Shown here piece by piece: positions 4,265 through 56,042 of a stretch of DNA of 64,000 nt. The notes beneath the pieces were generated by a model. It made no database searches, was not told the origin of the DNA, and was given only the letters and a program-made list of their open reading frames with translations. Source of the stretch: Escherichia phage RB3; the sequence record KM606994. One strand, written 5' to 3'. Made by a program: the position numbers and the translations under genes. How positions within the stretch are numbered: position 1 is the stretch's first letter; each line of letters begins with the position of its first letter.

Positions 4265-4316
4265 CACTTATCCTCGTTTGGTTTCGGGAATATTATACTC
4301 CGGTAATCATAAAGCT

Positions 4317-4334
4317 AAAGGCCCGAAGGCCTTT
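4317..4334 (-). terminator. GC-rich hairpin (GGCC-UUCG-GGCC on minus transcript), possible terminator or RNA stability element
   Basis: Inverted repeat aaaggcc cgaa ggccttt between lipoprotein ORF and gene 39. Confidence 0.4.
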
Positions 4335-4594
4335 TATTTAAAACGAATAGTTGAATCCTTAAAGAACAGCCCAGAACATACTGTTCCTTCTACTTTCTGC
4401 CCGGTAGGTCCAATAGCACGAAATCCAGTATGCTGGAAATCATTTTCAGAGCAACCGAACCAATTATATCCAGTGATTTCAATATTAGTAAAACCACTTG
4501 AAGACAAAACTTTGGTTGCATTATCAGCATCAGTACATCCTACTAAAGACACTACTAATACTAATGCTGCGATAGAACGATTAATATATTTCAT
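4334..4594 (-). CDS. putative lipoprotein (signal peptide plus lipobox LVGC)
   Basis: ORF-track 115-aa ORF trimmed to internal Met MKYINRSIAALVLVVSLVGC. Confidence 0.45.
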   Translation of the reverse strand: MKYINRSIAALVLVVSLVGCTDADNATKVLSSSGFTNIEITGYNWFGCSENDFQHTGFRAIGPTGQKVEGTVCSGLFFKDSTIRFK

Positions 4595-5799: not shown

Positions 5800-6069
5800 T
5801 TAATTGAACAGTGGAGCGATACGTTTCAGAAGAGTAGCAGCACCTTTGGCAAATTTTACATCATGAAAAACAGTTTCTTCTTCCGTTACAACACGAGCTT
5901 TAATGTTTTCACAATCCCAATTTTTGCGAACAATCTTCAAAAGCTGCAGTAAATCTTTACATTCAGCAATATCGATAACACATCCACGAGAATCTTCCAT
6001 TATCGCACGATAACCGTAAGCCATACCATAATCATTGAAAGATTGCTCGATGATAATTAAATTTTCCAT
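5800..6069 (-). CDS. hypothetical protein (89 aa from first ATG)
   Basis: Track ORF trimmed to ATG preceded by GGAG within the shared leader cassette. Confidence 0.45.
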   Translation of the reverse strand: MENLIIIEQSFNDYGMAYGYRAIMEDSRGCVIDIAECKDLLQLLKIVRKNWDCENIKARVVTEEETVFHDVKFAKGAATLLKRIAPLFN

Positions 6070-6121
6070 TTTATTCTCCAAGTTTTTCTGTATCAGTAGT
6101 TGATATTGATATAGTACCATA
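6070..6121 (-). promoter_or_regulatory. copy of shared promoter-leader cassette (divergent -35)
   Basis: Transcribed-strand sequence ATGGTACTATATCAATATCAACTACTGATACAG...GGAGAATAAA-ATG closely matches copies at 24392-24458 and 52094-52160. Confidence 0.4.
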
Positions 6122-6175
6122 ATCAACTACTGATGTATATAGTTTTATGAAAAAAATTTTAAACTTTATGCAAAT

Positions 6176-6595
6176 TTATGCTAAAGCTGCTTCGCACCAT
6201 TTTTTAATTTGGAATTCAGGAACTACCATGAACTGGCCTGCAAAAACAATATTGTAGAGCTTGACACCATCTTCTACCCAACGGTCCGAAATAAAACCAG
6301 CGACTTGATTCGTTGTCCATGGAGTTCCATCTGTTGCCGCCGCAATTGTGAATTTATGGTCTTTTACAACTAAAACTGAAGAACAAAGTTTCCATTTAAA
6401 TGCGCTTTCTTCTGGCTCAATGAACTGACTTGAGACATAACCAATGTTACCATCAGCGTCACGAACTTTAACCTCGTTACGACCAAAAACTGGATCACTT
6501 ACAGAAAGAACTTCAACCAGCTTTCCTGCAACTTTAGAACGAGAAGCAACGGATACATATACGTAATCACCAGTAGAGAGATTTACAATATTCAT
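6176..6595 (-). CDS. paralog-family protein (139 aa), member 1 of 3
   Basis: C-terminal motif WVEDGVKLYNIVFAGQF shared with 6605-7123 and 7151-7588. Confidence 0.5.
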   Translation of the reverse strand: MNIVNLSTGDYVYVSVASRSKVAGKLVEVLSVSDPVFGRNEVKVRDADGNIGYVSSQFIEPEESAFKWKLCSSVLVVKDHKFTIAAATDGTPWTTNQVAGFISDRWVEDGVKLYNIVFAGQFMVVPEFQIKKWCEAALA

Positions 6596-6604
6596 AATAA
6601 TTCC

Positions 6605-7123
6605 TTAAGCTTTACGAGGAGAAGCATAACGAGTGATTTCAGATTCTTCAACAACCCGGAAGTCACCTAAGAATACGATATTGTAGAGCTTTTCACCATC
6701 TTCAACCCATTGGTCTGTGATGAAGCCACACATCCTATCAGTTTTACTTGGACCAGCGAAATCATCAATATAATCGAATTCTTCATCAGTTACAAATTCA
6801 ACGCCTTTACACAACGCCCATTTAAATTGTGCATTAGACTCAGTGGATTCAACTTCTTCAACAGAAGCAAAATGAGAGCTAACACGAGTTTCCAGAAATT
6901 TAGGACTTACGTAAGCGTACTGAGTTTCAGTTTTTCCAGAACTAGGAATGATTCGAACTTTAACTTCTTTAACACGACCAGTACCATTAGTACGAAGTCC
7001 TACCACTTCAACTAGACGACCTGCAGCTTTAGAACGAGATGCAGACGATACACGCTTAATTTCACCGATAGTAATCATAATTTTTCTCTCTTTGTTGTTA
7101 AGATTTATACTCCGCAGGACCAT
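6605..7123 (-). CDS. paralog-family protein (172 aa), member 2 of 3
   Basis: Shares ASRSKxAGxLVEV N-terminal and WVEDGEKLYNIVFLGDF C-terminal motifs with 6176-6595. Confidence 0.5.
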   Translation of the reverse strand: MVLRSINLNNKERKIMITIGEIKRVSSASRSKAAGRLVEVVGLRTNGTGRVKEVKVRIIPSSGKTETQYAYVSPKFLETRVSSHFASVEEVESTESNAQFKWALCKGVEFVTDEEFDYIDDFAGPSKTDRMCGFITDQWVEDGEKLYNIVFLGDFRVVEESEITRYASPRKA

Positions 7124-7150: not shown

Positions 7151-7588
7151 TTAGCTTACACGAACATTAATCACTGCGCTGCGAGGAACTACAGAGTACT
7201 CTCCAGCATGAACTACGTTCAGAAGTTCAACACCATCTTCAATCCACTGATCAGTCACCCATCCACCCACAGGATTCGCGAATGGACGACGAATATAAAC
7301 TGCCTTACACAGCAGATCAGTTGGATCTTCAGGTTTTTCAATTTCTGTCAATAGACTAAAATCTTTTTCATAAATAATAAGCGATGATACCATTCCATAA
7401 TAGTTTCTAATTTCAATATACATCATACCGATAAGAATTCCGCTATTAACACTAATAACAGTAAAAGGATATCCGCCAGTTAAACCAAGAAGTTCACAAA
7501 ACTTATTATGAGCTGTATTAGACAGTACCGAAAAATTCTTAATTTCATCAAATTTTTTCAATTGATAAACAGCATTATTTTTAATCAT
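7151..7588 (-). CDS. paralog-family protein (145 aa), member 3 of 3
   Basis: C-terminal WIEDGVELLNVVHAGEY motif related to the two preceding genes. Confidence 0.45.
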   Translation of the reverse strand: MIKNNAVYQLKKFDEIKNFSVLSNTAHNKFCELLGLTGGYPFTVISVNSGILIGMMYIEIRNYYGMVSSLIIYEKDFSLLTEIEKPEDPTDLLCKAVYIRRPFANPVGGWVTDQWIEDGVELLNVVHAGEYSVVPRSAVINVRVS

Positions 7589-11958: not shown

Positions 11959-11996
11959 ATTTTTCTCACATCTTACAGACGATTTAATACTTTATT

Positions 11997-12026
11997 ACTA
12001 TAACATTTTTACCTTAACTTGTAAAC
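11997..12026 (-). promoter_or_regulatory. early promoter (GTTTAC, 18 nt, TATAGT) upstream of srd
   Basis: Plus strand actata-N18-gtaaac. Confidence 0.5.
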
Positions 12027-15425: not shown

Positions 15426-15455
15426 ATTATACCATACTCATTTTGGAAAGTAAAC
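15426..15455 (-). promoter_or_regulatory. early promoter (GTTTAC, 18 nt, TGGTATAAT)
   Basis: Plus strand attata-N18-gtaaac. Confidence 0.55.
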
Positions 15456-15460
15456 CATTT

Positions 15461-15480
15461 AAATGAAAAAAGGACTCCCG
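15461..15480 (-). terminator. intrinsic terminator downstream of soc (stem, UUCG loop, U-run)
   Basis: aggactcc-cgaa-ggagtcct preceded by an A-run on the plus strand (U-run on minus transcript). Confidence 0.6.
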
Positions 15481-15495
15481 AAGGAGTCCTTGAAT

Positions 15496-18427: not shown

Positions 18428-18458
18428 TTTCTTTTCTCCGCGATTAGCTGATAGAATT

Positions 18459-18488
18459 ACTATAACACAACTCTATCAGCTTGTAAAC
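18459..18488 (-). promoter_or_regulatory. early promoter (GTTTAC, 18 nt, TATAGT)
   Basis: Plus strand actata-N18-gtaaac. Confidence 0.5.
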
Positions 18489-18926: not shown

Positions 18927-18956
18927 AATAATTTCCCCAATTTAACCAACAAGACT

Positions 18957-18986
18957 ACTATACCATAGTCTTGTCAGCTTGTAAAC
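18957..18986 (-). promoter_or_regulatory. early promoter (GTTTAC, 18 nt, TATAGT) upstream of dmd
   Basis: Plus strand actata-N18-gtaaac. Confidence 0.5.
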
Positions 18987-22861: not shown

Positions 22862-23598
22862 TTCCACTCACCGTTATAATCTTTTTTCACAATATGAGTT
22901 TCGCCAGTATTCCACCAATGATCAACCAAGTAAAAATGACGAGAATATACATGAAGACTTCCAACATTCCATATAATAGAACCTGCTTTATACTGACGAG
23001 TTGAATCGCCTGCATTCAAATCAGATACTAATTTATCTAATACGTATTTTTGCCATGCATAATCATTACGGAATCCGAAGACCACGTCATTTGAGCGCAT
23101 GCTTACTACTGCATTGACTTTCTTATCACGAATCAGGTACTGTACTGTATTAGTACACATGAAATCTGACATGCCATCTTTATTGTAGTCAAATTGCATG
23201 GATGGACGAGTATAAATCATGATACCACGTCGAGAATCAGGATTTTGACCAAGTTCAGCTAAACACATATCATACTGGGCATAGTTATCTTCTGACCAAA
23301 TAGCCCAGCCATAATTCGAGTTAATTTCGCCTTTAGAAGATGCTACCTGCTGCCAAATCTTTGGTGTTTCACCTGGAATATCTTTAACAAACAGACTTTG
23401 AGACTTGTACCATTCAAGTTCACGCTGAATGTATTCATCATTAAGAGCGCCAAAAATAAAGGGTTCATCTGCTACAAATGATGCGCCAATAATTTCAATA
23501 GTTTTAACGCCAGTTTTATCAACTACGAAATCTTTTTCCTTTAATGCAGTTCCCAAATAAAAACGGATTTCTTCAACTGTCATAGAGTCATTAATCAT
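22858..23598 (-). CDS. 42: dCMP hydroxymethylase gp42 (246 aa)
   Basis: Thymidylate-synthase-like fold; length and sequence as T4 gp42. Confidence 0.9.
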   Translation of the reverse strand: MINDSMTVEEIRFYLGTALKEKDFVVDKTGVKTIEIIGASFVADEPFIFGALNDEYIQRELEWYKSQSLFVKDIPGETPKIWQQVASSKGEINSNYGWAIWSEDNYAQYDMCLAELGQNPDSRRGIMIYTRPSMQFDYNKDGMSDFMCTNTVQYLIRDKKVNAVVSMRSNDVVFGFRNDYAWQKYVLDKLVSDLNAGDSTRQYKAGSIIWNVGSLHVYSRHFYLVDHWWNTGETHIVKKDYNGEWK

Positions 23599-23751
23599 TT
23601 AAACCTCAATTGATGCATTCATATTTAAATTGTAACAGTAATAAACCCCACCCTATGATAAGAGTTGGAATCATAGCAGGAACTGTTACGCTATAGTATA
23701 TACTTATTATAACCATCAAGATTAAAAGCAACACTGCTATAATTTTGCTTT

Positions 23752-24003
23752 TCATTCTTTCTCTCTGATGATAATTACCTGATTTGGCTGTACAGACTTT
23801 TTAGTTTCACCTGCAATTGACCAAATAAATGTAATAAACCAACCAATAATTGACCAGTTAAACAGTAAAGACGTGAAAAAGATTCCTACTGTCGATTTTG
23901 ACCCACGCATCAAGGCGATAAACCATGGAAGCATGTATATAATAATAGCCAACACGCCTGAAACTAAAACCATAAAAATTGAACCTGCTACTAAAGTTTC
24001 CAT
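23752..24003 (-). CDS. imm: immunity protein Imm (83 aa)
   Basis: Two TM segments; length and sequence as T4 Imm. Confidence 0.75.
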   Translation of the reverse strand: METLVAGSIFMVLVSGVLAIIIYMLPWFIALMRGSKSTVGIFFTSLLFNWSIIGWFITFIWSIAGETKKSVQPNQVIIIREKE

Positions 24004-24010
24004 GTTTTCC

Positions 24011-24391
24011 TCACTTAGTCAAATTTTTTACACATGAATTATAAGAATTCACTACATACTCCATCGGAGCATTTTTACCTGTGCGCCATTGGTAATTATT
24101 AGCCCAATTTGCCCAAAGCACAGCGCAGTAGTTTTCAATTTTTTCTTCGCGTGTAATTACATCAGAATTACGATATGCTTGAGCAGATTCATCTGGACGA
24201 ATAGCTTCGTCAAAATTCGCCTGCATTTGTTCTACTGTTTGCTTTGGAGCTTCTTTATAACACTTGACATTAGGATTATAAAATTTGCTTGAACAGTTTA
24301 CAATTTTTCCTACATCAGACTGATTTACTACCGGTCCTTGAGCTACACAACCAGTAAGACCTAATGCAATAACCAAAATAGCGATTTTCAT
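24011..24391 (-). CDS. putative lipoprotein (126 aa from first ATG)
   Basis: Signal peptide MKIAILVIALGLTGC with lipobox; shared leader cassette upstream. Confidence 0.5.
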   Translation of the reverse strand: MKIAILVIALGLTGCVAQGPVVNQSDVGKIVNCSSKFYNPNVKCYKEAPKQTVEQMQANFDEAIRPDESAQAYRNSDVITREEKIENYCAVLWANWANNYQWRTGKNAPMEYVVNSYNSCVKNLTK

Positions 24392-24413
24392 TTCATTCTC
24401 CAAATCCGTATTA

Positions 24414-24458
24414 GTAGTTGATAGTTGTATAGTACCATGGAAGAACAGTCTTGTAAAC
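24414..24458 (-). promoter_or_regulatory. early promoter plus shared leader cassette
   Basis: gtagttgatagttgtatagtaccat then gtaaac at 24453-24458, followed by an A/T-rich UP-like tract. Confidence 0.5.
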
Positions 24459-24545
24459 AGTTTTGTGAAAATTTTTTAGGGAATTCTAAAGGTCCAGAAT
24501 CATCTGTTTTTCATAAGTATAGATTTATATTACTTGTATGAAAAA

Positions 24546-24561
24546 GGGACCCGGAGGTCCC
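24546..24561 (-). terminator. intrinsic terminator downstream of gene 43
   Basis: gggacc-cgga-ggtccc with A5 on plus strand (U5 on minus transcript). Confidence 0.6.
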
Positions 24562-24574
24562 TAGATTTATTCTA

Positions 24575-27271
24575 TCAGCCAAACAGGAAGTCTAACGAAG
24601 CTTTTTCTTCATAGTCCATACCAGCCGATTCACACATACCCGCAAGCGGTTTAACAAACGATTTTTGGAACAAAGTTGAGTAGTCAATCCAAGACAGTAC
24701 GTCAGAACGAATTTCCTTTGGAAGTTCTGTGCCCGACGGCCAAGCAATGCACTTGTCACCAAATGGATTTCCTTCGCGTAATGGAAGAACCATTACTTTA
24801 TTTCCATCCAAAATTGGAGCTACACCTAGACCACTAACAGCTCGACGATAAGTTAGCACACCACGAATATGGAACGGGCATTTAAATCCTGGCCAACCTT
24901 TATCATCATATTTCGCTATATCGTTCGCAGTTTTTACTTCAGCAATAACTTTATAGTCGAGTTGACGATATTCTTTCTCGAAGTTCTTGTAATATTCTTG
25001 GACAGACTCTTCACCTTCCTGAAGAATACGACGAATACTTTCTTCGAGAGCTTCTTGCACTGCCTTTGGTGTTGAACTCTGCTGAGTTTCCATACCCATG
25101 ATTTTTAGATGCGGTTCAGCAAATCGCTTATCTTCCATATCATAAACGTTCAGAGCATAACGCTTTTTCGCTTTCCAAAATCCGCCAACGCCCTTTGAAC
25201 CAAGTGGAGGGCAAGAAATAGCTTCACGGTCCATATGCATCAGATGCTCGCGGTTATTCATATAATCACATAACTCACGATATGCAACATCAATCATAGG
25301 TTCCATCTTTTTCTTACCAAACTGATTCATGAATTCAACTAAATCATTTTGTTCTTTAAAGCGGTCAAGACCTACTTTTTCAATTACTTTATCTACACAA
25401 ACATATACCGAATCAGTATCACCTGCTGCAATGAAATCTTCGCCATTAGTTCCGCATACTTTATTCAGATATTCATTAATTTTACGAGCAATCCACTGAA
25501 TACCAACTTGGCCGAAAATTGTGATAGCAGTAGCATTTCGCAAATCATAGTAACGAAAATGAATATTACCAAGAGCACCGTAAAGACTGTTAATAAGAAT
25601 TTTACGGTTCAGCTGATTTGTGTTAGCAAGTGTAGCTGCTTTTTCACATTCTTCAATCAAACTATTGAGAACAGATTCGGTGTAATTCGATAGTTCATTT
25701 AAGAAATCATCACTGAACTTAACATATCGTTCAACTTCAGGTTTAGTTGAACAAGACCCTGCGCCTTTCATAATAATCTTTTTAATAGCTTCGGCATTCA
25801 TTTCTTCAGCGAACATTTTCTTTTTCCAATCTTTACGCTGGAAAAATACTTTAGCGATTTCCTTTGGAATGATACCTTCTTGATGCTTATCATACATCCA
25901 TCCATTCGGAGAACAAGAATATTCATCACTCGGTTTAGGAGCTGTTCCTGCGATATATTCATGAATTGGATGAACTTTAAATTGTCCACGAATAGTCTCA
26001 GGACTAATGTTAACCTGGCGAATAATACTCGGATACAGAGACGTCAAGTCAAAACTCATAATGTATCGACGAGCAATTGGCTTAGGTTCAAATACAAATG
26101 CACCCGGAAAACTCTGTTTAACATGCGAACCTTGTTGAGGAATAACCTTATGTTCACCTTTCAATGAGTTAAAAATAATAGCATCCCAAGTTTTAATAGG
26201 ACTCATTACACCAGAAAAAGGCATTTTAGCGTAATAAGACATACTTAAAACTAGATCGATAAACCCGCGAATTTTATCAATTGCTTGAACTGATTCTACG
26301 TCAATGATGTTATAACTAATGTATCGTTGATGATTAGTCTCACGAAGTTTATTAATAGGACCATCATACGGTAATTTACCTTTTTTGGTTTCATGTTGAG
26401 CAACTGATTCCAAAGAGAATGACGGCAAATTAGTAAAAGCGAATTTCTTGTACAAATCTAAATAATCAAGAATAGATACGCCATCAATAGAATAAATTTC
26501 TTTGCTACCGTACATGTTTTGAATTAGTTTAGATTTTACTCGACCGATTGGAGAAAAGCGTTTCATACTGCGTTCACCGAGAACCATTTTAACGCGATTC
26601 ATGATATACGGAACGTCAAATCCCTCAATATTCCAACCGGTAAAAATAGCAGGTCGTTTCTGTTCCCAGAGATTGATATATTCCATGAGCATATCACGCT
26701 CATTATCAAATGGCATATAAATTACTCGGTCAAGAATTTCTTGAGGAACTTCATCGCCACCTTCACAGTCAAGCTTAGCAGCTAACTTTGCATCCCATTT
26801 TGATACTGAACCGTACATTGAATTCAAAAGGTCGAAAACATAAAAACGATCATCAATTGAATCGTAATGAGTGATAGCATCAATTTCATATTCAGCTTTC
26901 ATTGGGTCAGGAAATTTATCACCAGTAACCTCAATGTCACAGTTAGCTACACGAACAAATTTTCGGTCATAAACAATTTCTGAACCATATGTATCACTGA
27001 TATAAGCGAGTTTAAAATCGTTCATACCGAGAGCTTCGAGACCGATGTCTTCCATTCGCTTCATCCAATCTCGTGCATCTTTCATTGATGGAAATTTTTG
27101 AGGAGCGCAGTTTTTACCATAAATGTCTTTGTATTTTGACTCTTCCTTACAATGCCTAAACATAGTTGGAAGATATTCTACTTCACGAGTACGTTCCTTT
27201 CCGTTTTCATCAATATAACGTTCAACAATGTTATTTCCGACTGTTTCAATAGAGATATAAAATTCTTTCAT
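24575..27271 (-). CDS. 43: DNA polymerase gp43 (family B, 898 aa)
   Basis: Exonuclease and polymerase motifs (YGDTDS); length as T4 gp43. Confidence 0.95.
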   Translation of the reverse strand: MKEFYISIETVGNNIVERYIDENGKERTREVEYLPTMFRHCKEESKYKDIYGKNCAPQKFPSMKDARDWMKRMEDIGLEALGMNDFKLAYISDTYGSEIVYDRKFVRVANCDIEVTGDKFPDPMKAEYEIDAITHYDSIDDRFYVFDLLNSMYGSVSKWDAKLAAKLDCEGGDEVPQEILDRVIYMPFDNERDMLMEYINLWEQKRPAIFTGWNIEGFDVPYIMNRVKMVLGERSMKRFSPIGRVKSKLIQNMYGSKEIYSIDGVSILDYLDLYKKFAFTNLPSFSLESVAQHETKKGKLPYDGPINKLRETNHQRYISYNIIDVESVQAIDKIRGFIDLVLSMSYYAKMPFSGVMSPIKTWDAIIFNSLKGEHKVIPQQGSHVKQSFPGAFVFEPKPIARRYIMSFDLTSLYPSIIRQVNISPETIRGQFKVHPIHEYIAGTAPKPSDEYSCSPNGWMYDKHQEGIIPKEIAKVFFQRKDWKKKMFAEEMNAEAIKKIIMKGAGSCSTKPEVERYVKFSDDFLNELSNYTESVLNSLIEECEKAATLANTNQLNRKILINSLYGALGNIHFRYYDLRNATAITIFGQVGIQWIARKINEYLNKVCGTNGEDFIAAGDTDSVYVCVDKVIEKVGLDRFKEQNDLVEFMNQFGKKKMEPMIDVAYRELCDYMNNREHLMHMDREAISCPPLGSKGVGGFWKAKKRYALNVYDMEDKRFAEPHLKIMGMETQQSSTPKAVQEALEESIRRILQEGEESVQEYYKNFEKEYRQLDYKVIAEVKTANDIAKYDDKGWPGFKCPFHIRGVLTYRRAVSGLGVAPILDGNKVMVLPLREGNPFGDKCIAWPSGTELPKEIRSDVLSWIDYSTLFQKSFVKPLAGMCESAGMDYEEKASLDFLFG

Positions 27272-27330
27272 AGATATTCCTTAGTTTATAGCCCGAGTTA
27301 TTAGGCTCTTGATATATTATACTCCAATTA

Positions 27331-27346
27331 AGGGGCCGAAGCCCCT
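27331..27346 (-). other. GC hairpin with UUCG loop between regA and gene 43
   Basis: aggggc-cgaa-gcccct in the intergenic region. Confidence 0.45.
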
Positions 27347-27349
27347 TGC

Positions 27350-27718
27350 TTAATTACCAATCGTATATTTAGGAACGAGTTTCCATTCATGTTTTTGTTT
27401 AAAAGAAATAACTCGGAAATTATTAGTTAAATCTTTCATAAAAGTTCTTTGACCAGGAATGATTTCAATCAGTCCCCAATCTTCTAACAACCATGCAATC
27501 GAATCACGACGAACTTCATCTTCTTCTGTCATTTCAACCTGGCGACCATCCATACGAAGCATTTCTTTAAAATGAACGATATAGTATAGTCCTTTTTTCT
27601 GAAGAATATGGCAGGACTGATACAGAACTTTATCTTTATTATTAGCAATTCCCATACGAGTCAAAGTTTCTTTTACTTTCAGAAAATCTTCAGGTTTTTT
27701 AAGAGTAATTTCAATCAT
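27350..27718 (-). CDS. regA: translational repressor RegA (122 aa)
   Basis: Length and sequence as T4 RegA. Confidence 0.85.
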   Translation of the reverse strand: MIEITLKKPEDFLKVKETLTRMGIANNKDKVLYQSCHILQKKGLYYIVHFKEMLRMDGRQVEMTEEDEVRRDSIAWLLEDWGLIEIIPGQRTFMKDLTNNFRVISFKQKHEWKLVPKYTIGN

Positions 27719-29244: not shown

Positions 29245-29276
29245 AATTTCCTCATTCAAGTTTTAGTGTAAATTAT

Positions 29277-29294
29277 AAAGGGCCGAAGCCCTTT
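29277..29294 (-). other. GC hairpin with UUCG loop between 45 and 44
   Basis: aaagggc-cgaa-gcccttt. Confidence 0.45.
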
Positions 29295-29295
29295 A

Positions 29296-29982
29296 TTAAA
29301 AATCGTGGGTAGAATCAGCTTCAAGAGCTACTACATAATTCGCATGTTCACCTTCAAATTTAGCAGCGCCTTGTTTACCTTTTGCCCAGAGCAGAAGTTT
29401 ATAATTTCCTGGTTGCATTTTCATATTTGCCATATTGATAATGAAATTAAATGTATTTTCACCATCATAATCACCAAGAGTCAAAGAATATTTAACACGG
29501 GTCAGAGCAGAATCTTCTACTTTATTAAAACCGTTAATTACGATTTTACCTTCTTTTACTGTGATAGCAATTGTATCAATTTGCAGACCACGAGATACAC
29601 GCAACAGTTGTTGAAGGTCTTCAGCTTTAATTTCAGTAACAACAGATGCTACCGGGAATGGAATTGGTTTATTAGGAGCAACTACTGTACTCGGATCGGC
29701 TGCTGGCCAAAAAATTGTTGAACGAGCATCAGCAATTTTAATATTTCCATCTTCTGACTGGGAAATTTCTGCATCATCATTAACTAGAGACAGAATACCG
29801 AGAAAACCGTTCAAATCGTAAATTGCTACATCAAAATCAATAACGTCAGAAATATTTGCTTCCGCGTAAGTTGTACCATTAACTGCGCGAGTCATAATAA
29901 ATTGACCGGATTTAAGCATAATGCCAGAGTTAATAGTAGCGAAATTTTTAAGCAGAGCAGTAGTATCTTTAGACAGTTTCAT
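29296..29982 (-). CDS. 45: sliding clamp gp45 (228 aa)
   Basis: Length and sequence as T4 gp45. Confidence 0.92.
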   Translation of the reverse strand: MKLSKDTTALLKNFATINSGIMLKSGQFIMTRAVNGTTYAEANISDVIDFDVAIYDLNGFLGILSLVNDDAEISQSEDGNIKIADARSTIFWPAADPSTVVAPNKPIPFPVASVVTEIKAEDLQQLLRVSRGLQIDTIAITVKEGKIVINGFNKVEDSALTRVKYSLTLGDYDGENTFNFIINMANMKMQPGNYKLLLWAKGKQGAAKFEGEHANYVVALEADSTHDF

Positions 29983-33963: not shown

Positions 33964-33986
33964 TATATCAAACTCCGTATAAAGCT

Positions 33987-34004
33987 AAAGGGCCGAAGCC
34001 CTTT
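33987..34004 (-). other. GC hairpin with UUCG loop overlapping alpha-gt stop
   Basis: aaagggc-cgaa-gcccttt. Confidence 0.45.
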
Positions 34005-35205
34005 ATTTTGTAATAATGTCAAACTGTTCTTTAAAGCAGAAGCTTGAATCTTGATGCTGATACAAAAATTCATATGCTTTTTCTCGCTCACGGTCATAAA
34101 GAGCTCGGTCAGATGACAGTTCTTTAATACGCTCGAATGTTGATTCCATGTCATTTTCATCAAACCAAATGATACCGCTATCATGCGAGGTCAAAGGAGT
34201 ATTATCAACACGGAATTTTAAATTATCACCCGTTGATTTCCAGAAAACAGGAATTGTACCGCAAGCACCTAATTCAAGATGAGTATATTCGAGTGAGCGT
34301 TGTAGATATTTTTTATCCAACTTACTCAACTGATAACCAAAACCGGATTTACTCATACGTTCAAGCATTTCGCTATTTACATAACGGTCAAGAATTTGCG
34401 TTGGCAAATTAGGAGCAATTTTAATTTGGTCTACTTGATGAAGACGATAATACTCGTATGGAATTCCTTTTTCTTTAATGGGAATGAACGCTGGAGAACG
34501 TTCCAGACCTTCCATAATAGTACTTAGTCCTGCAGGTTTAAGATGTTTTTCATGAAAATCAAACATCTGATAAAAACCTTTCCACGTAGTCGTACGACCA
34601 ATCCAACGGTTAATATTCATGTTAATTTCAGAAACATCTTTCCAGTAGGTTGACCGAACCTTCGCAATATCCATAGGAGGCTGAAAGTTATATACGGTCG
34701 GTGCTTCTTCAATATCATCAAACAGAGAAACTGTTTCAGGATACCATTCTTTCATCAGAACTTTATTAAAATCGCCATTATCAGAATGACTAAAAATAAC
34801 ATCAGCTCGACGAACAGTTTCTTCTAATCCCAAATTTCGACGCAAAGAAAGAGAAGAATGGTCATGTTGATAAACTACAACACGAACCGAAGGTTTAATG
34901 TTATCAATAATTTTTTTATAGTTATTAATTGTGTCTTCTTCGACTGAAGTAGCAGGAACTGAATTGATAATTAGAATATCACAATCATTTACCAGCTTAA
35001 GTGTTTTATCGTATTCTTTTGCCAATAAAACCGGAATTGAAAATGATTTATAATCATGCGCGCAGTTACGAGTAAATGATTTATCTTTAGCATAAACCAA
35101 AGTTACTTCATGACCATTTTTAATAAACCAATCACGCTGCTCAAGAGAAAATTTAGTTACACCGCAACCTTCAAGACCTCGAGCCATAAAAATACATACT
35201 TTCAT
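34003..35205 (-). CDS. a-gt: DNA alpha-glucosyltransferase (400 aa)
   Basis: Length and sequence as T4 alpha-gt (GT-B fold). Confidence 0.88.
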   Translation of the reverse strand: MKVCIFMARGLEGCGVTKFSLEQRDWFIKNGHEVTLVYAKDKSFTRNCAHDYKSFSIPVLLAKEYDKTLKLVNDCDILIINSVPATSVEEDTINNYKKIIDNIKPSVRVVVYQHDHSSLSLRRNLGLEETVRRADVIFSHSDNGDFNKVLMKEWYPETVSLFDDIEEAPTVYNFQPPMDIAKVRSTYWKDVSEINMNINRWIGRTTTWKGFYQMFDFHEKHLKPAGLSTIMEGLERSPAFIPIKEKGIPYEYYRLHQVDQIKIAPNLPTQILDRYVNSEMLERMSKSGFGYQLSKLDKKYLQRSLEYTHLELGACGTIPVFWKSTGDNLKFRVDNTPLTSHDSGIIWFDENDMESTFERIKELSSDRALYDREREKAYEFLYQHQDSSFCFKEQFDIITK

Positions 35206-37590: not shown

Positions 37591-37628
37591 ACATTATCCT
37601 CAATTACGTTAAAATTTTATTATCCAAA

Positions 37629-37644
37629 AAGGGCCGAAGCCCTT
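37629..37644 (-). terminator. intrinsic terminator (UUCG-loop hairpin plus U-run)
   Basis: aagggc-cgaa-gccctt with A5 on plus strand; overlaps stop of ORF 37643-37843. Confidence 0.55.
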
Positions 37645-37843
37645 AGCTAAACTTTTTGGCACCCTTCCAGCCTTCATACATCATTGCGGCTGATATTAAT
37701 ATTGCTCCTGAGCAACTTGAATATTTGTGATTCCAAAACCAGTTTAGAAAAACTTCATCATCAATACCTTGGGCTATCATATTTTCAAAGAACTGACGAC
37801 GAGCTTCGGCAATTCGCTGCGATAATTTAGATTCAGGATTCAT
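37643..37843 (-). CDS. hypothetical protein (66 aa)
   Basis: ORF track. Confidence 0.4.
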   Translation of the reverse strand: MNPESKLSQRIAEARRQFFENMIAQGIDDEVFLNWFWNHKYSSCSGAILISAAMMYEGWKGAKKFS

Positions 37844-47010: not shown

Positions 47011-47040
47011 ATTATACCACATCCTTGTGGTAAAGTAAAC
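47011..47040 (-). promoter_or_regulatory. early promoter, exact duplicate of the 2418-2447 promoter
   Basis: Identical 30-mer attataccacatccttgtggtaaagtaaac. Confidence 0.6.
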
Positions 47041-48062
47041 TAGTTCAGTGCATTTAGTGCATTGCTCAGTTTAGAACGTTGCTTCGTGAGATTTTTGACT
47101 TTTTCTTGTGCTTTTTCTAGCATCTTTTCAGCTTCTAACACTTCATTAGTTGCTTTAACGAGTTCATCATCTACTGCCTTGATAGACTTCTCAATCGCAT
47201 CCGCGTGCCATTTTTCAACAGGTTTAAGACTCGGATTTTCAACAGGAAGAAAATTCACTTTATTGAATTTCCATGCATCTTTATTACCTGAGCTATACAT
47301 CCAAAATTTAGGATCGTTTGATAAGTAATTGGATAAATTTAAGTTATCTTGCACTTCCTGCTTTTTCTCTTGCGGGACTTCGTCCTTTCTCAAAAAATCG
47401 TATTTAAATGAAACGATCATATCAAGTTCATATGTTGTTGTATGTTCCCAATTTCGCTCAAAACGAGGTAAAATCTTAGATTGAACAGCAGCAACAACAT
47501 CCATATACTTAAATGCTTCTGTCAACTGCGATTTAAGGCATTCACAAATTGAAAGAGAATTTTTTGTATTAGGTTTAAAGCTAATTCGCGCAGTTCTATT
47601 ATTTTCTTTTAATGGTCTTACTTCCATCTGAAGAGTATAACCATCAAATTTCAGGTTCTTTAAGTTAATATCAGAGCCTTTTAATCGACTAGCAGTAGAC
47701 AAAATTTGCTTTAATTGTTTACGGAATAGAGCAATAAATCTCCATTCAATACGATAATGATTTGGATTGAAAAATCCAGATGATAAATCGACCTTACTTT
47801 GACCAACGCCTTGAACAATCAAAGGATTTTTATAATCAATAGTTTTACAGAAATCGGTGAGCTGTTCACGAGCAGTCATTTGTGTAATATACCCTGCTTT
47901 ACTAAAATTACGCACCCATTCACTGCTATTCGTATACTTAAAGTGATGAATAACACGATTAACTTTATCAGGGTCTAAATTATTTTCACACAAAAATGTC
48001 ATAACATCACGAGTATAGCTGGCATTACGAACCATATCTTCAATTTGAGAACGAGTTTTCAT
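47040..48062 (-). CDS. uncharacterized protein with C-terminal coiled coil (340 aa), array member 3
   Basis: ORF track; ATG start with AAGGAA RBS. Confidence 0.5.
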   Translation of the reverse strand: MKTRSQIEDMVRNASYTRDVMTFLCENNLDPDKVNRVIHHFKYTNSSEWVRNFSKAGYITQMTAREQLTDFCKTIDYKNPLIVQGVGQSKVDLSSGFFNPNHYRIEWRFIALFRKQLKQILSTASRLKGSDINLKNLKFDGYTLQMEVRPLKENNRTARISFKPNTKNSLSICECLKSQLTEAFKYMDVVAAVQSKILPRFERNWEHTTTYELDMIVSFKYDFLRKDEVPQEKKQEVQDNLNLSNYLSNDPKFWMYSSGNKDAWKFNKVNFLPVENPSLKPVEKWHADAIEKSIKAVDDELVKATNEVLEAEKMLEKAQEKVKNLTKQRSKLSNALNALN

Positions 48063-49428: not shown

Positions 49429-49956
49429 TTATGCGAGTACCGTCTTTAACCGTTCTTCAAACTTCCGAAGAGTATTCTGGCGTTCAGCTCTTTGCTTTTT
49501 ATAAGTTTCAATACGCTCTGAAATGAGAGTGCATCGTTCATTTACTGATTCTTTCATAAAATCAGGAATTTCACGAGAAGCTTTAATCTCATCAAATTTA
49601 TCAATAACAGCTTGCTCTTCAGCAATTAAGTTATCATACATCAAAATATCTTTCTTGATGAACTCAATATCTTCTTGAGTTACACGAGATAACTTAGATG
49701 CTTTATCCTTTTTGTACTGTTCGTTAGTATCACGAGACCAATGTAATGTACGATTTTTATTCGTATTCTTGTAAATTTCTACGATACCAATCTCATCAAT
49801 AATAACGATCCAATTCCAACGGGATTTGTAAATTTGTCCTCCATCAACCGTGATTTCACCACCGATTGAGACATCATTAAAGAACTTGCTTTGAGCTTCA
49901 GATTTAAATTTACCATCGTTGTAATTTACCAGGTTGAAAATATCTTTAGCGTTCAT
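49429..49956 (-). CDS. hypothetical protein with C-terminal coiled coil (175 aa)
   Basis: ORF track; GGAGGA RBS; shared leader cassette upstream. Confidence 0.45.
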   Translation of the reverse strand: MNAKDIFNLVNYNDGKFKSEAQSKFFNDVSIGGEITVDGGQIYKSRWNWIVIIDEIGIVEIYKNTNKNRTLHWSRDTNEQYKKDKASKLSRVTQEDIEFIKKDILMYDNLIAEEQAVIDKFDEIKASREIPDFMKESVNERCTLISERIETYKKQRAERQNTLRKFEERLKTVLA

Positions 49957-49969
49957 TTTGTGTTCCTCC

Positions 49970-50014
49970 GTAGTTGATAGTTGTATAGTACCACAGAGGA
50001 ACAGTCTTGTAAAC
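49970..50014 (-). promoter_or_regulatory. early promoter plus shared leader cassette
   Basis: gtagttgatagttgtatagtacca then gtaaac at 50009-50014. Confidence 0.5.
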
Positions 50015-50016
50015 CA

Positions 50017-50331
50017 CTAAAAGAAACTTCTTTCACAATTTTTTCCACTGAACCATGCGCTCACTGCTTTCTTAGTCTCAGGAGCAGTGTTATCCATAAA
50101 CCATTCAAAGGCAGCCTTTTTATGATTCTGGAGGGCTTCTCGGGCTTTAATCTGCTCACGGTCTATTAACACTAACATATGAGCCTTTCTTGTCACCAGG
50201 GGCTTCTTATGATTTTTTGAATATTCCCAATCATTTGTCCATCGCATCGTTGTTGCGAACTGGAATACAGCTTCTTTAATCTTAGTTTCGTAAATTTCAC
50301 GAGCCTTTGAGTATAACATCATTACCTCCAT
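50017..50331 (-). CDS. hypothetical protein (104 aa)
   Basis: ORF track. Confidence 0.4.
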   Translation of the reverse strand: MEVMMLYSKAREIYETKIKEAVFQFATTMRWTNDWEYSKNHKKPLVTRKAHMLVLIDREQIKAREALQNHKKAAFEWFMDNTAPETKKAVSAWFSGKNCERSFF

Positions 50332-50401: not shown

Positions 50402-51128
50402 TTAGGATTCTTCTAAATGTCTTTTCTGAAAAGTTGATACCATACTACGATACGGTTCATTTGGATACCCGTGTTTTATAGCTTCCTTTGTAAATTTTCT
50501 CCATCCATATTTAGTTTTTTTCCAAAGCTCGAATAATTCATCTTCATATTGCCATATAGTTAAATGAGAACGCTTTGCAGCTTTAATTCCATTAATATGC
50601 TTTTCTTTTACTACAGGATTGCTTAGTTTCTTTTTAATAATATTACTAACTTTTCTAACAAAAACTGGGTCCTTATATCGTTGCGAAGTTTTTATTGAAG
50701 TGTTTAATTTAGCTTCCGGCGTGGATGTAACCTCTTTCATCTTTTTCTTCATATGCTGTATATGATTAGGATTTTTCCATAAATTTATAGAATGCTTTTT
50801 GCATTTTATCCTAGTTTCATCTGCAACCTTTCCTCCTTCACCCCCCCCCCCCGTATGACAGGTTAACACAGTTTTTTCCATATTTCAATTTACCTGCCAT
50901 GATATATAATATTTCAGCTTGTACCATTTTATCATAATTATCAAAAACTTCTAAAACCGTTTTTGATAATATGTGGTCATTTGACACTTTTACACGTTCT
51001 ATATAATTTCCACTACCAACATACGAATCATTGATGTTATTAGTTATATGTCGACCATAATAGTATTTCTTAATACCTGTCTTTAAATTTAATATTTCAG
51101 TTTTATAGATAGTAAAATATTTTTTCAT
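50402..51128 (-). pseudogene. GIY-YIG homing endonuclease gene split in two frames at a homopolymer tract
   Basis: ORF 50838-51128 carries the GIY-YIG motif and ends ...SYGGGG; ORF 50402-50881 starts ...TGGGGEGG in another frame; one base fewer in the tract would fuse them into about 240 aa. Confidence 0.6.
50841..50852. repeat. C12 homopolymer (G12 on coding strand)
   Basis: Twelve consecutive C at the frame junction of the split endonuclease gene. Confidence 0.9.
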
Positions 51129-52093
51129 TTTAATAATACCGTTTCAGCAATTTCTTCCCAATGGTTTTTGTCGGTCATAATAAAGTCAGCAAGATAAAGT
51201 GCAGTACGCAGTGAAACATTGCGTAAACGATTAACATTGACTTTCATCCATGATAATGCTTTATAAGTTTCTTCATCAGAAAGACCGCGCTTTTGCATCA
51301 TGTCAGTTGAAAGAATAACATCTTCAACCCTGACCATAATTTCTTCATTAGTGTGAACACCCAAATCCAAATAAACTGAGCGGGACACTAATGCTTGTAA
51401 GTGTGGGGCAAGTTTAGTACCACGGTCTAATTCGCGGTCAATGTCAACGTTTGTGATAAAAACAATCGTTCCTTTAAATTCAAACTCACGCTCAATGCCT
51501 TTTTCTTCTAAGTAAGAAGATGCAGTGCTCCAGCAGACTTTACGGGTCTCTCCAGTGTCCAGAGCAGCTTTTAGAAGATTAAGAATGTCCATATCAGAGA
51601 AAACATCCACATCATCAATCAAAAGGACAGAATTCTCTTCACGATTATTCCAAAGTTGTTCATAAAGACCGATACCGGAGATTTTACCGTTAATGCTTTT
51701 ATATTCAATGTATCCAATATCATTTGCTTTATTTAAAGCTTTATCTAAAGAATACGTTTTACCAATGCCTGCTGCTCCTGAGATAATTAATGAACGAATG
51801 TTTCCGTTAATAATACCATTCGTCATCATTCCCATAACATTAAATCTTTTATTAATGCGGGTTTTCATATCTTCATATGATTCTTTAACTTCTTCAACTT
51901 TTACGCCATCATATGAAATGTCTGATTTGTAAACCCAAACACCGCGACGCTTACCGTCAATTTCAACAAAAACTTTACCATCTCCTTGTGCATCTACCGG
52001 AGCATTATCTGGGAACCATTCGCCTAAGAGCTCAAAAGTTCCAGAGATTTCTTTACCAAAGTAGATACCCTTATTGATAGTTACAGTTTTCAT
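51125..52093 (-). CDS. AAA+/P-loop ATPase (322 aa from first ATG)
   Basis: Walker A GAAGIGKT and Walker B LLIDDVD; track start is TTG, first ATG has GGAG RBS. Confidence 0.6.
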   Translation of the reverse strand: MKTVTINKGIYFGKEISGTFELLGEWFPDNAPVDAQGDGKVFVEIDGKRRGVWVYKSDISYDGVKVEEVKESYEDMKTRINKRFNVMGMMTNGIINGNIRSLIISGAAGIGKTYSLDKALNKANDIGYIEYKSINGKISGIGLYEQLWNNREENSVLLIDDVDVFSDMDILNLLKAALDTGETRKVCWSTASSYLEEKGIEREFEFKGTIVFITNVDIDRELDRGTKLAPHLQALVSRSVYLDLGVHTNEEIMVRVEDVILSTDMMQKRGLSDEETYKALSWMKVNVNRLRNVSLRTALYLADFIMTDKNHWEEIAETVLLK

Positions 52094-52115
52094 TTTATTC
52101 TCCAAATCTGTATCA

Positions 52116-52160
52116 GTAGTTGATAGTTGTATAGTACCATAAAGCTTTATGCTTGTAAAC
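52116..52160 (-). promoter_or_regulatory. early promoter plus shared leader cassette
   Basis: gtagttgatagttgtatagtaccat then gtaaac at 52155-52160 and an A/T-rich upstream tract. Confidence 0.5.
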
Positions 52161-52190
52161 CATTTTGTGAAAAATTTTTGAAATAAAAAA

Positions 52191-52208
52191 GGGAGCCCGA
52201 AGGCTCCC
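52191..52208 (-). terminator. intrinsic terminator downstream of the nucleotidyltransferase-fold gene
   Basis: gggagcc-cgaa-ggctccc with A-run on plus strand (U-run on minus transcript). Confidence 0.6.
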
Positions 52209-52210
52209 TA

Positions 52211-55169: not shown

Positions 55170-55209
55170 TGACAAGATTACTATACCATAACCTTGCCAA
55201 CTTGTAAAC
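55170..55209 (-). promoter_or_regulatory. early promoter (GTTTAC, 18 nt, TATAGT)
   Basis: Plus strand actata-N18-gtaaac. Confidence 0.5.
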
Positions 55210-55799: not shown

Positions 55800-55951
55800 G
55801 CCATGTGAGTTGCAACTTCATCACACATATTATAACGTTTCTTAAGAAGTTCTACAAGTTCTTCACTAGTAACTTCATCCATGTCGACGAAAAAATCACC
55901 ATTAATGATGACGTAGATATTTCCTTCTTGATTGAGTGCTTCAATTTTCAT
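55763..55951 (-). CDS. hypothetical protein (62 aa from first ATG)
   Basis: Track ORF trimmed to ATG with GAGGAG RBS inside the shared leader cassette. Confidence 0.4.
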
Positions 55952-55971
55952 GATGTTCTCCTCTTTATCCG

Positions 55972-56009
55972 ATAGTTGTATAGTACCACAGCTCAAACGG
56001 AAAGTAAAC
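55972..56009 (-). promoter_or_regulatory. early promoter plus shared leader cassette
   Basis: gatagttgtatagtaccac then gtaaac at 56004-56009. Confidence 0.5.
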
Positions 56010-56024
56010 CGGTAAAATGAAAAA

Positions 56025-56042
56025 AGTCTCCCGAAGGAGACT
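56025..56042 (-). terminator. intrinsic terminator downstream of ORF 56047-56433
   Basis: agtctcc-cgaa-ggagact with A5 on plus strand. Confidence 0.6.

Follow-up and report, generated by a model that had tools for sequence, protein, structure and literature searches.

Five copies of a cassette consisting of a promoter, a leader and a translation start are found in the window, by which we mean the whole 64,000-nucleotide stretch of Escherichia phage RB3 (KM606994) that was analysed, and comparison with related phages indicates that these cassettes are favoured joints between accessory genes. Based on its sequence, each copy is very probably a T4-type immediate-early promoter followed by a standard 5′ leader and a translation start. 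The first-pass annotation had described a nearly identical cassette before at least five unrelated genes and had likened it to the mobile early-promoter cassettes proposed to shuffle modules in T4-type genomes. The repeat is real and this reading is correct, with some details overstated; the early-promoter role and the recombination-joint role have both been published already, and there is nothing new in principle. The word 'mobile' refers here to a recombination linker and not to a transposing element.

The region 23000–27000 of the window (the 4 kb compared) is 100% identical to RB5, RB6, RB7, RB9 and RB10, and its identity to T6 and to numerous further Tequatrovirus phages is ~98%. The RB5 gene coordinates follow the ORFs of the window with an offset of 0–8 bases over its full length, and therefore the window represents the initial 64 kb of an RB5-like T-even genome, starting from rIIA. 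All annotated genes but two are located on the minus strand, as are all five copies. The genes found 3′ of copies 1 to 5 are RB5_009 (89 aa, in the motB–cef interval), imm.1, nrdC.8 (175 aa), nrdC.10 and mobD.5 (62 aa), respectively. They are indeed unrelated, and the five proteins have no Pfam family in common. The imm.1 product belongs to DUF5481 (Pfam) and its N-terminus MKIAILVIALGLTGC reads as a lipoprotein signal; the nrdC.10 product (322 aa) gives only sub-threshold P-loop/AAA matches. Concerning the neighbourhood of RB5_009, the gene RB5_010 (6176–6595) encodes a MotB-like paralogue in tandem with motB and motB.1. Its DNA is ~82% identical to Mosigvirus motB-like genes, with repeats reaching 6636–6728 and 7231–7269, and it is missing in T4 and in most Tequatrovirus records.

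Copy 1 (6070–6172), upstream of RB5_009, comprises an UP element (~6172–6141), a −35 box ATATAC (6140–6135), TGG followed by TACTAT (6116–6111), and a leader (6110–6070) with the 3′ end GGAGAATAAA, after which the ATG is found at 6069. The −35 box matches GTTTAC at four of six positions, and copy 1 was not called by a generic sigma-70 promoter scan. A hairpin at 6092–6134, with a 13-bp outer stem (ATCAGTAGTTGAT/ATCAACTACTGAT) and a 5-bp inner stem, covers the spacer, the −10 and the start region; the same hairpin is present in T4 and W143. Its folding energy is −20.2 kcal/mol (z-score −6.4) and none of 200 shuffled sequences folds as well. The spacer carries an inverted copy of the leader, and the promoter of copy 1 is thus enclosed in a 13+5-bp hairpin. 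Copy 2 (24392–24490), upstream of imm.1, contains the UP element ccctaaaaaattttcacaaaact, GTTTAC (24458–24453), TACTAT (24434–24429) and the Shine–Dalgarno (SD) end GGAGAATGAA (24401–24392), followed by the ATG at 24391. The terminator hairpin of gene 43 (24545–24562, AGGGACC-UCCG-GGUCCCU plus a U-run) is located ~87 nt 5′ of its −35 box. Copy 3 (49957–50045), upstream of nrdC.8, consists of GTTTAC (50014–50009), TACTAT (49990–49985), a short leader and GGAGGAACACAAA, with the ATG at 49956; its −35 box lies a few bases past the end of nrdC.9. Copy 4 (52094–52189), upstream of nrdC.10, contains the UP element atttcaaaaatttttcacaaaatg, GTTTAC (52160–52155), TACTAT (52136–52131) and the SD end GGAGAATAAA (52103–52094), with the ATG at 52093. 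The nrdC.11 terminator (52190–52209, AGGGAGCC-UUCG-GGCUCCCU plus a U-run) abuts its UP element. Copy 5 (55952–56024), upstream of mobD.5, contains GTTTAC (56009–56004), TACTAT (55985–55980) and the leader acaactatcggataaagaggagaacatc, with the ATG at 55951 and only an 18-mer core in common with the other copies. The rI.-1 terminator (56025–56042, AGUCUCC-UUCG-GGAGACU plus a U-run) is found 16 nt 5′ of the copy-5 −35 box.

The common trait of all five copies is TGG-TACTAT, as well as an SD sequence with a downstream start codon at the 3′ end of the cassette. The gap from GTTTAC to TACTAT is 18 nt, which equals 17 nt counted from TTTACA. The UP motif aaaa(a/t)ttttt(c)a(c/t)aaaa is present 5′ of the −35 box in copies 1, 2 and 4, and T-rich or A/T-rich runs are found there in copies 3 and 5. 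As the first-pass annotation had them, the intervals of the copies all stop one base short of the start codon annotated for the gene that follows; they begin at the −35 box, and that of copy 1 at the start of a 25-mer. This 25-mer, ATGGTACTATACAACTATCAACTAC, which had been given as common to the family, is present on the minus strand at 24414–24438 and 52116–52140 (0 mismatches), 49970–49994 (one) and 6096–6120 (three) and is absent from the fifth copy, which shares TGGTACTATACAACTATC and nothing else of it; no chance match was found in 100 dinucleotide shuffles. GTTTAC, claimed upstream of each copy, precedes four of the five but not the 6.1 kb copy, which has ATATAC. The leader end that had been described as frequent exists as GGAGAATAAA-ATG in the 6.1 kb and 52.1 kb copies and as GGAGAATGAA-ATG in the 24.4 kb copy, but not in the others. 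Concerning the three UUCG terminators that had been reported, two are adjacent to their copies (52209–52190 and 56042–56025), while the third (24562–24545) has a UCCG loop and lies at the distance given above; the 6.1 kb and 50.0 kb copies lack a terminator. UUCG-loop terminator hairpins also form a dispersed repeat family of their own (29276–29297, 33986–34007, 27329–27350, 37627–37648 and 4316–4337, with further repeats at 15460–15486, 52179–52205 and 56013–56039), in which two 22-mers, 3′ of genes 45 and a-gt, are identical.

For comparison, pattern and weight-matrix scans of the window supplied nine more promoters built in the same way. Over 85 ungapped positions the mean identity is 0.60 among the five copies, 0.44 among the other promoters and 0.28 for random pairs. 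Over the −10 hexamer and the 25 nt that follow it is 0.69 for the five copies vs 0.34 for the others, and the −10 of the copies is always TACTAT. The alignment thus shows the copies to be closer to one another than to the other early promoters, which are also less alike among themselves, and in a repeat search the cassettes (families D1–D3) are the largest dispersed direct-repeat families in the window. The family is a mosaic: copies 2 and 3 agree at 15 of the 18 spacer positions, copies 2 and 4 are 94% identical over 54 nt through the whole leader (family D3), and copies 1 and 4 have the leader and GGAGAATAAAATG in common. Copy 5 is similar to the 15455 promoter in the terminator, the UP element and the −35 half; upstream of TGGTACTATACAACTATC its identity to that promoter is 0.64, vs 0.46–0.58 to the other four copies.

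Such likeness could also be the result of selection towards one promoter and start optimum at sites that do not move, the indels beside them being ordinary microhomology events at gene boundaries; we regard this as unlikely, though deserving of serious attention. Consistent with it, the related motifs CCTATCAA and CTACTGAGGAG recur in other early promoters, and the Mosigvirus orthologue of nrdC.8 keeps GTTTAC and CTATCAACTAC while its spacer has diverged and its −10 is TATTAT, from which the start region appears to be under constraint and the spacer free to change. The extent of the identity argues in the opposite direction. The spacers that are so alike before imm.1 and nrdC.8 are among the stretches not read by RNA polymerase and are free to diverge between genera, and the likeness of the imm.1 and nrdC.10 copies extends through the whole leader.

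Other groups of similar early-promoter sequences are also present in the window. A terminator–promoter composite at 15455–15486 resembles the copy-5 composite at 56009. Identical 32-mers, GTTTAC tttaccacaaggatgtgg TATAAT, at 2418–2449 and 47011–47042, are the promoter cores of rIIA.1 and nrdC.4 and represent a second near-identical early-promoter pair, 44.6 kb apart. The repeat search also revealed further early promoters near 12026, 18488 and 18986. Another sub-family, GTTTAC aagctgacaagactatgg TATAGT agtcttgt, is found at 18949–18986, 55172–55209, 18451–18488 and 11989–12026, and in it the spacer and the start region are inverted repeats of each other (acaagact/agtcttgt).

T4 early promoters have reportedly been described by Liebig & Rüger in 1989 and by Miller et al. 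in 2003. The five loci are found in synteny in both T4 and W143, and the T4 equivalents are found at 6609, 27059, 53922, 55363 and 58759; T4 contains one more such element 5′ of e.8 and a partial one 5′ of denV. In the T4 record U76612 the nrdC.10 site is annotated as 'early promoter 54.4' together with a terminator, and −35/−10 signals are annotated before nrdC.8. The T4 early class is described as UP/−35/TGn/−10 'with additional regions of consensus' (Hinton 2010, PMC2988021), GTTTAC occupies −36 to −31 in T4 early promoters (PMC1524935), and the class dates from Liebig & Rüger 1989, as cited in PMC9391042. The copies share with the promoters reviewed in PMC2988021 the UP element, GTTTAC, TTTACA-N17, TGn, TAnnnT, the extra conserved positions and the location before early genes. 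There is no substantive difference; the five copies are a sub-family with TACTAT and the start region ACAACTATCAACTAC, and in copy 1 the −35 is degenerate. Nothing usable came from a search of the literature for T4 transcription start sites mapped over the whole genome.

The 3′ ends of the leaders can be compared with the target of the RegB endoribonuclease, which together with ribosomal protein S1 inactivates early mRNAs; the T4 RegB/S1 target consensus is GGAGAAUAAAA, more generally GGAGRAYARAA (Durand et al. 2006, PMC1702504). Directly before the AUG, copies 1 and 4 contain GGAGAAUAAAA, matching the T4 consensus at 11 of 11 positions, and GGAGAAUGAAA of copy 2 matches at 10 of 11. GGAGGAACACA of copy 3 and GGAGAACAUCA of copy 5 are off at two, three or more positions of GGAGRAYARAA and therefore fit poorly. 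The leaders have no excess structure relative to shuffled sequences (z-scores −0.14 to +1.23), and in the minimum-energy folds GGAG is unpaired for four copies and partly paired for copy 5, whose fold is weak (−3.2 kcal/mol). The leaders are thus predicted to be unstructured, which fits the single-stranded context needed by the RegB/S1 target. The copies therefore resemble the sites in PMC1702504 in the exact T4 consensus of copies 1 and 4 and in the predicted single-stranded context; they differ in the deviating copies 3 and 5, and the cleavage suggested here is predicted from the target match. A candidate hairpin at the 5′ terminus of the leader (UAUCA/UGAUA) was rejected, since it reaches −0.6 kcal/mol at best, is similar to shuffled sequences and is broken by natural variants.

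Based on this anatomy and on the work on T4, host sigma-70 RNA polymerase would bind the UP element, the GTTTAC −35, the extended −10 TGG and the TACTAT −10, and transcription would start ~7 nt past the −10, inside the conserved CTATCAAC. The leader would be ~25–45 nt long and unstructured and would close with the SD, which in the best copies would coincide with the 11-nt RegB/S1 target. From the combination of a strong promoter with an SD/RegB target, the message would be expected to be made and translated at once and to be inactivated by RegB minutes later. The upstream terminator hairpin, where present, may shield the unit from read-through transcription. Since a stretch of 25–70 bp occurs about six times per genome in one orientation, the very active homologous recombination of T4 could cross over between copies, with the short repeats at the cassette edges as possible alternative crossover points; such crossovers would delete, insert or swap the ORFs lying between copies.

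The distribution of the cassette is wide. A 91-nt cassette query matches 3418 places in 544 phage records (~6.3 per genome), whose prevailing names are Escherichia, Shigella, Yersinia, Salmonella, Citrobacter and Serratia phages. An exact 24-mer scan of IMG/VR yielded 12 stretches on five contigs, which are too few for statistics; in these contigs the 24-mer is also found before motA, e.8, a 78-aa signal-peptide ORF and a 37-aa membrane ORF. The first-pass annotation had proposed to look for cassettes at gene-content breakpoints in relatives, and their edges do lie there at three of the five loci (imm.1, nrdC.10 and the 6.1 kb locus), but not at nrdC.8 and mobD.5. At the former three loci, together with an extra cassette of the nrdC.8 type, the copies do not precede the same genes in all relatives.

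The most informative locus is nrdC.11–nrdC.10, where 16 of 40 records, taken as a spread sample, contain insertions of ~260–1360 nt. The alleles are none (the window and T4), A (T2 and W143), B+C (D5505), D (KAW1E185) and A+B+C+D (FT). Each of ORFs A, B and D has its own GTTTAC-type promoter, and a degenerate promoter of this type precedes nrdC.10 in FT and KAW1E185. The promoter–ORF–terminator modules in W143, T2 and FT are placed behind the T-run of the nrdC.11 terminator and before the copy-4-type promoter; the ORF A module of W143 and T2 sits between the terminator T-run and the UP element. The promoter with the spacer aagcataaagctttatgg has one of three partners, nrdC.10, ORF B or ORF D, with divergence setting in directly past TAYTATACAACTATCAA. 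One promoter is thus found with three genes and the switch point lies within the conserved core, which argues against sites shaped by selection alone. As a natural example of the published model, the allele series is unusually clear. In the adjacent nrdC.10–nrdC.9 interval, an 'intron-like' DNA endonuclease gene (50402–51128) is present in W143 and missing in T4 (a 740-nt insertion), and its borders contain no cassette of this family. A leader with a 3-nt deletion, caactgatacgg, is found before nrdC.10 in T4 (55363) and T2 and before imm.1 in W143 (23640); in these few genomes, the variant could have arisen through slippage in the ACTACT run on more than one occasion, or through gene conversion, the two copies lying 28 kb from each other.

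At imm.1, an ORF of 78 aa interrupts two IMG/VR loci precisely at the start codon, and each of its junctions carries ATGAAAAT. In many phage records the 4-kb imm.1 region gives a two-piece match ~245 bp longer than the query, which is taken to be the same insertion. At cef–motB, 113 nt of the window (6060–6172) form an island of homology between variable flanks in ~600 phage records. Its upstream flank is motB or the MotB-like RB5_010, and its downstream flank is the 89-aa ORF, either complete or with the internal deletion of the T4 type, which leaves an 11-codon remnant and is also found, unannotated, in TOPO13. The T4 deletion (window 5862–6059 vs T4 6548–6557) has an AAAATT microhomology at the junction and leaves the promoter cassette intact. 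Finally, a 67-nt cassette of the nrdC.8 type, 95.5% identical, precedes an unrelated 37-aa ORF in another genome, and that locus has no other similarity to the window or to the first 80 kb of T4; this occurrence at an unrelated locus is likewise difficult to reconcile with sites that do not move.

Several observations at the level of the whole window are nevertheless in accordance with static sites. The nrdC.8 locus is uninterrupted in 497 of 652 matching records and the mobD.5 locus in 497 of 500. When the window was compared with T4 and W143, 4 of the 32 indels of at least 40 nt had an edge inside an early-promoter cassette; the other 28 are found elsewhere, and most of those outside cassettes are homing-endonuclease genes or small ORFs. 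The indel edges in cassettes number 5, vs ~2 expected by a rough estimate; with a promoter list that lacked those at ~12026, 18488 and 18986, this is too weak to claim an excess. Furthermore, the junctions at imm.1 and at the T4 cef–motB deletion are microhomologies of 6–8 bp at start codons and not cassette-to-cassette crossovers, and T4 is known to rearrange at 6–10-bp microhomologies anywhere in its genome (PMC9391042). Based on the invariant loci, the few cassette indels and the microhomology junctions, the cassettes are favoured joints; they are not the main engine of rearrangement and not mobile elements themselves.

The interpretation of the cassettes as promoter early stem-loops (PeSLs), proposed in the first-pass annotation, is supported by both anatomy and consensus. 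PeSLs are composites of a terminator, an early promoter and an SD, for which modular shuffling in RB49/phi1 has been proposed and partly shown experimentally (Arbiol 2010, PMC2839356). For T4/PST PeSLs, Comeau 2014 (PMC4122927) gives the consensus TTTACW-N17-TAYWAT and degraded copies near indels at ~43–51 kb of PST, which is probably the same nrdC region; the paper also describes PeSLs in KVP40/nt-1 and cites Repoila et al. 1994 as having noted the same at internal-protein loci. The consensus of PMC4122927 fits all four GTTTAC copies. The cassettes studied here share with PeSLs an early promoter followed by an SD and a start codon, with a terminator or stem-loop in some copies, the presence of multiple copies concentrated among accessory ORFs and the location at indel or replacement junctions of close relatives, and the hairpin of copy 1 corresponds to the PeSL subclass in which the stem-loop overlaps the −10 (PMC2839356). 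There are also differences: an adjacent stem-loop is found only in copies 4 and 5, it overlaps the promoter in copy 1, is absent at copy 3 and is 87 nt away in copy 2, and two of the five loci show no plasticity. A broader resemblance exists to integron cassettes, lambdoid 'morons' and Botstein–Campbell linkers, in which small gene units are exchanged at conserved boundaries and arrays hold differing subsets; the A+B+C+D array of FT and its subsets are an example. Unlike integron-type systems, the loci studied here have no integrase or attC-type site, the repeated boundary is a promoter, and general recombination, homologous or through microhomology, accounts for the exchange.

It is highly improbable that the core (~−15 to +17, TGGTACTATACAACTATCAACTACTGATA) is instead the site of a candidate phage factor, either a shut-off repressor or a recombinase, nuclease or recombination-targeting protein. 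The core is conserved past the known polymerase contacts and holds an imperfect palindrome, TATCA-ACTAC-TGATA, and copy 1 has a strong 13-bp inverted repeat around its −10. T4 early-promoter shut-off is without explanation (PMC2988021), and a specific recombination protein was raised as a possibility by Arbiol et al. (PMC2839356). If such a factor did exist, the core would be the missing shut-off repressor site for some early promoters, or a target directing recombination to the cassettes. However, the palindrome arms are only 5 bp long in A/T-rich DNA, copies 3 and 5 lack the 3′ arm, which in copy 2 is mutated (TAATA), the spacing of the arms is altered by the 3-nt deletion in the T4 nrdC.10 and W143 imm.1 copies, and homologous recombination alone suffices for the junctions. 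Equally hard to credit is that the differences in gene content are by-products of homing endonucleases, through co-conversion around seg/mob genes: mobD lies just 5′ of nrdC.11, the endonuclease-like gene at 50402–51128 is absent from T4, and many indels relative to T4 are mobA, segF, segA, mobB, mobC/segD and I-TevII, but the extra nrdC.11–nrdC.10 ORFs are small, do not encode endonucleases and have promoters of their own, and the junctions lie in terminator T-runs, UP elements and the promoter core rather than at the borders of endonuclease genes.

As early promoters that also act as recombination joints, the cassettes represent a ready-made expression signal for newly acquired accessory genes of T-even phages, many of which probably function in host takeover or counter-defence. 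The signal would offer strong immediate transcription, efficient translation and a timed shut-off by RegB, and its repetition along the genome provides joints at which accessory genes may be swapped or lost. In genome annotation, such sites would serve to place the true starts of early transcription units and to point out the accessory spots most prone to change.
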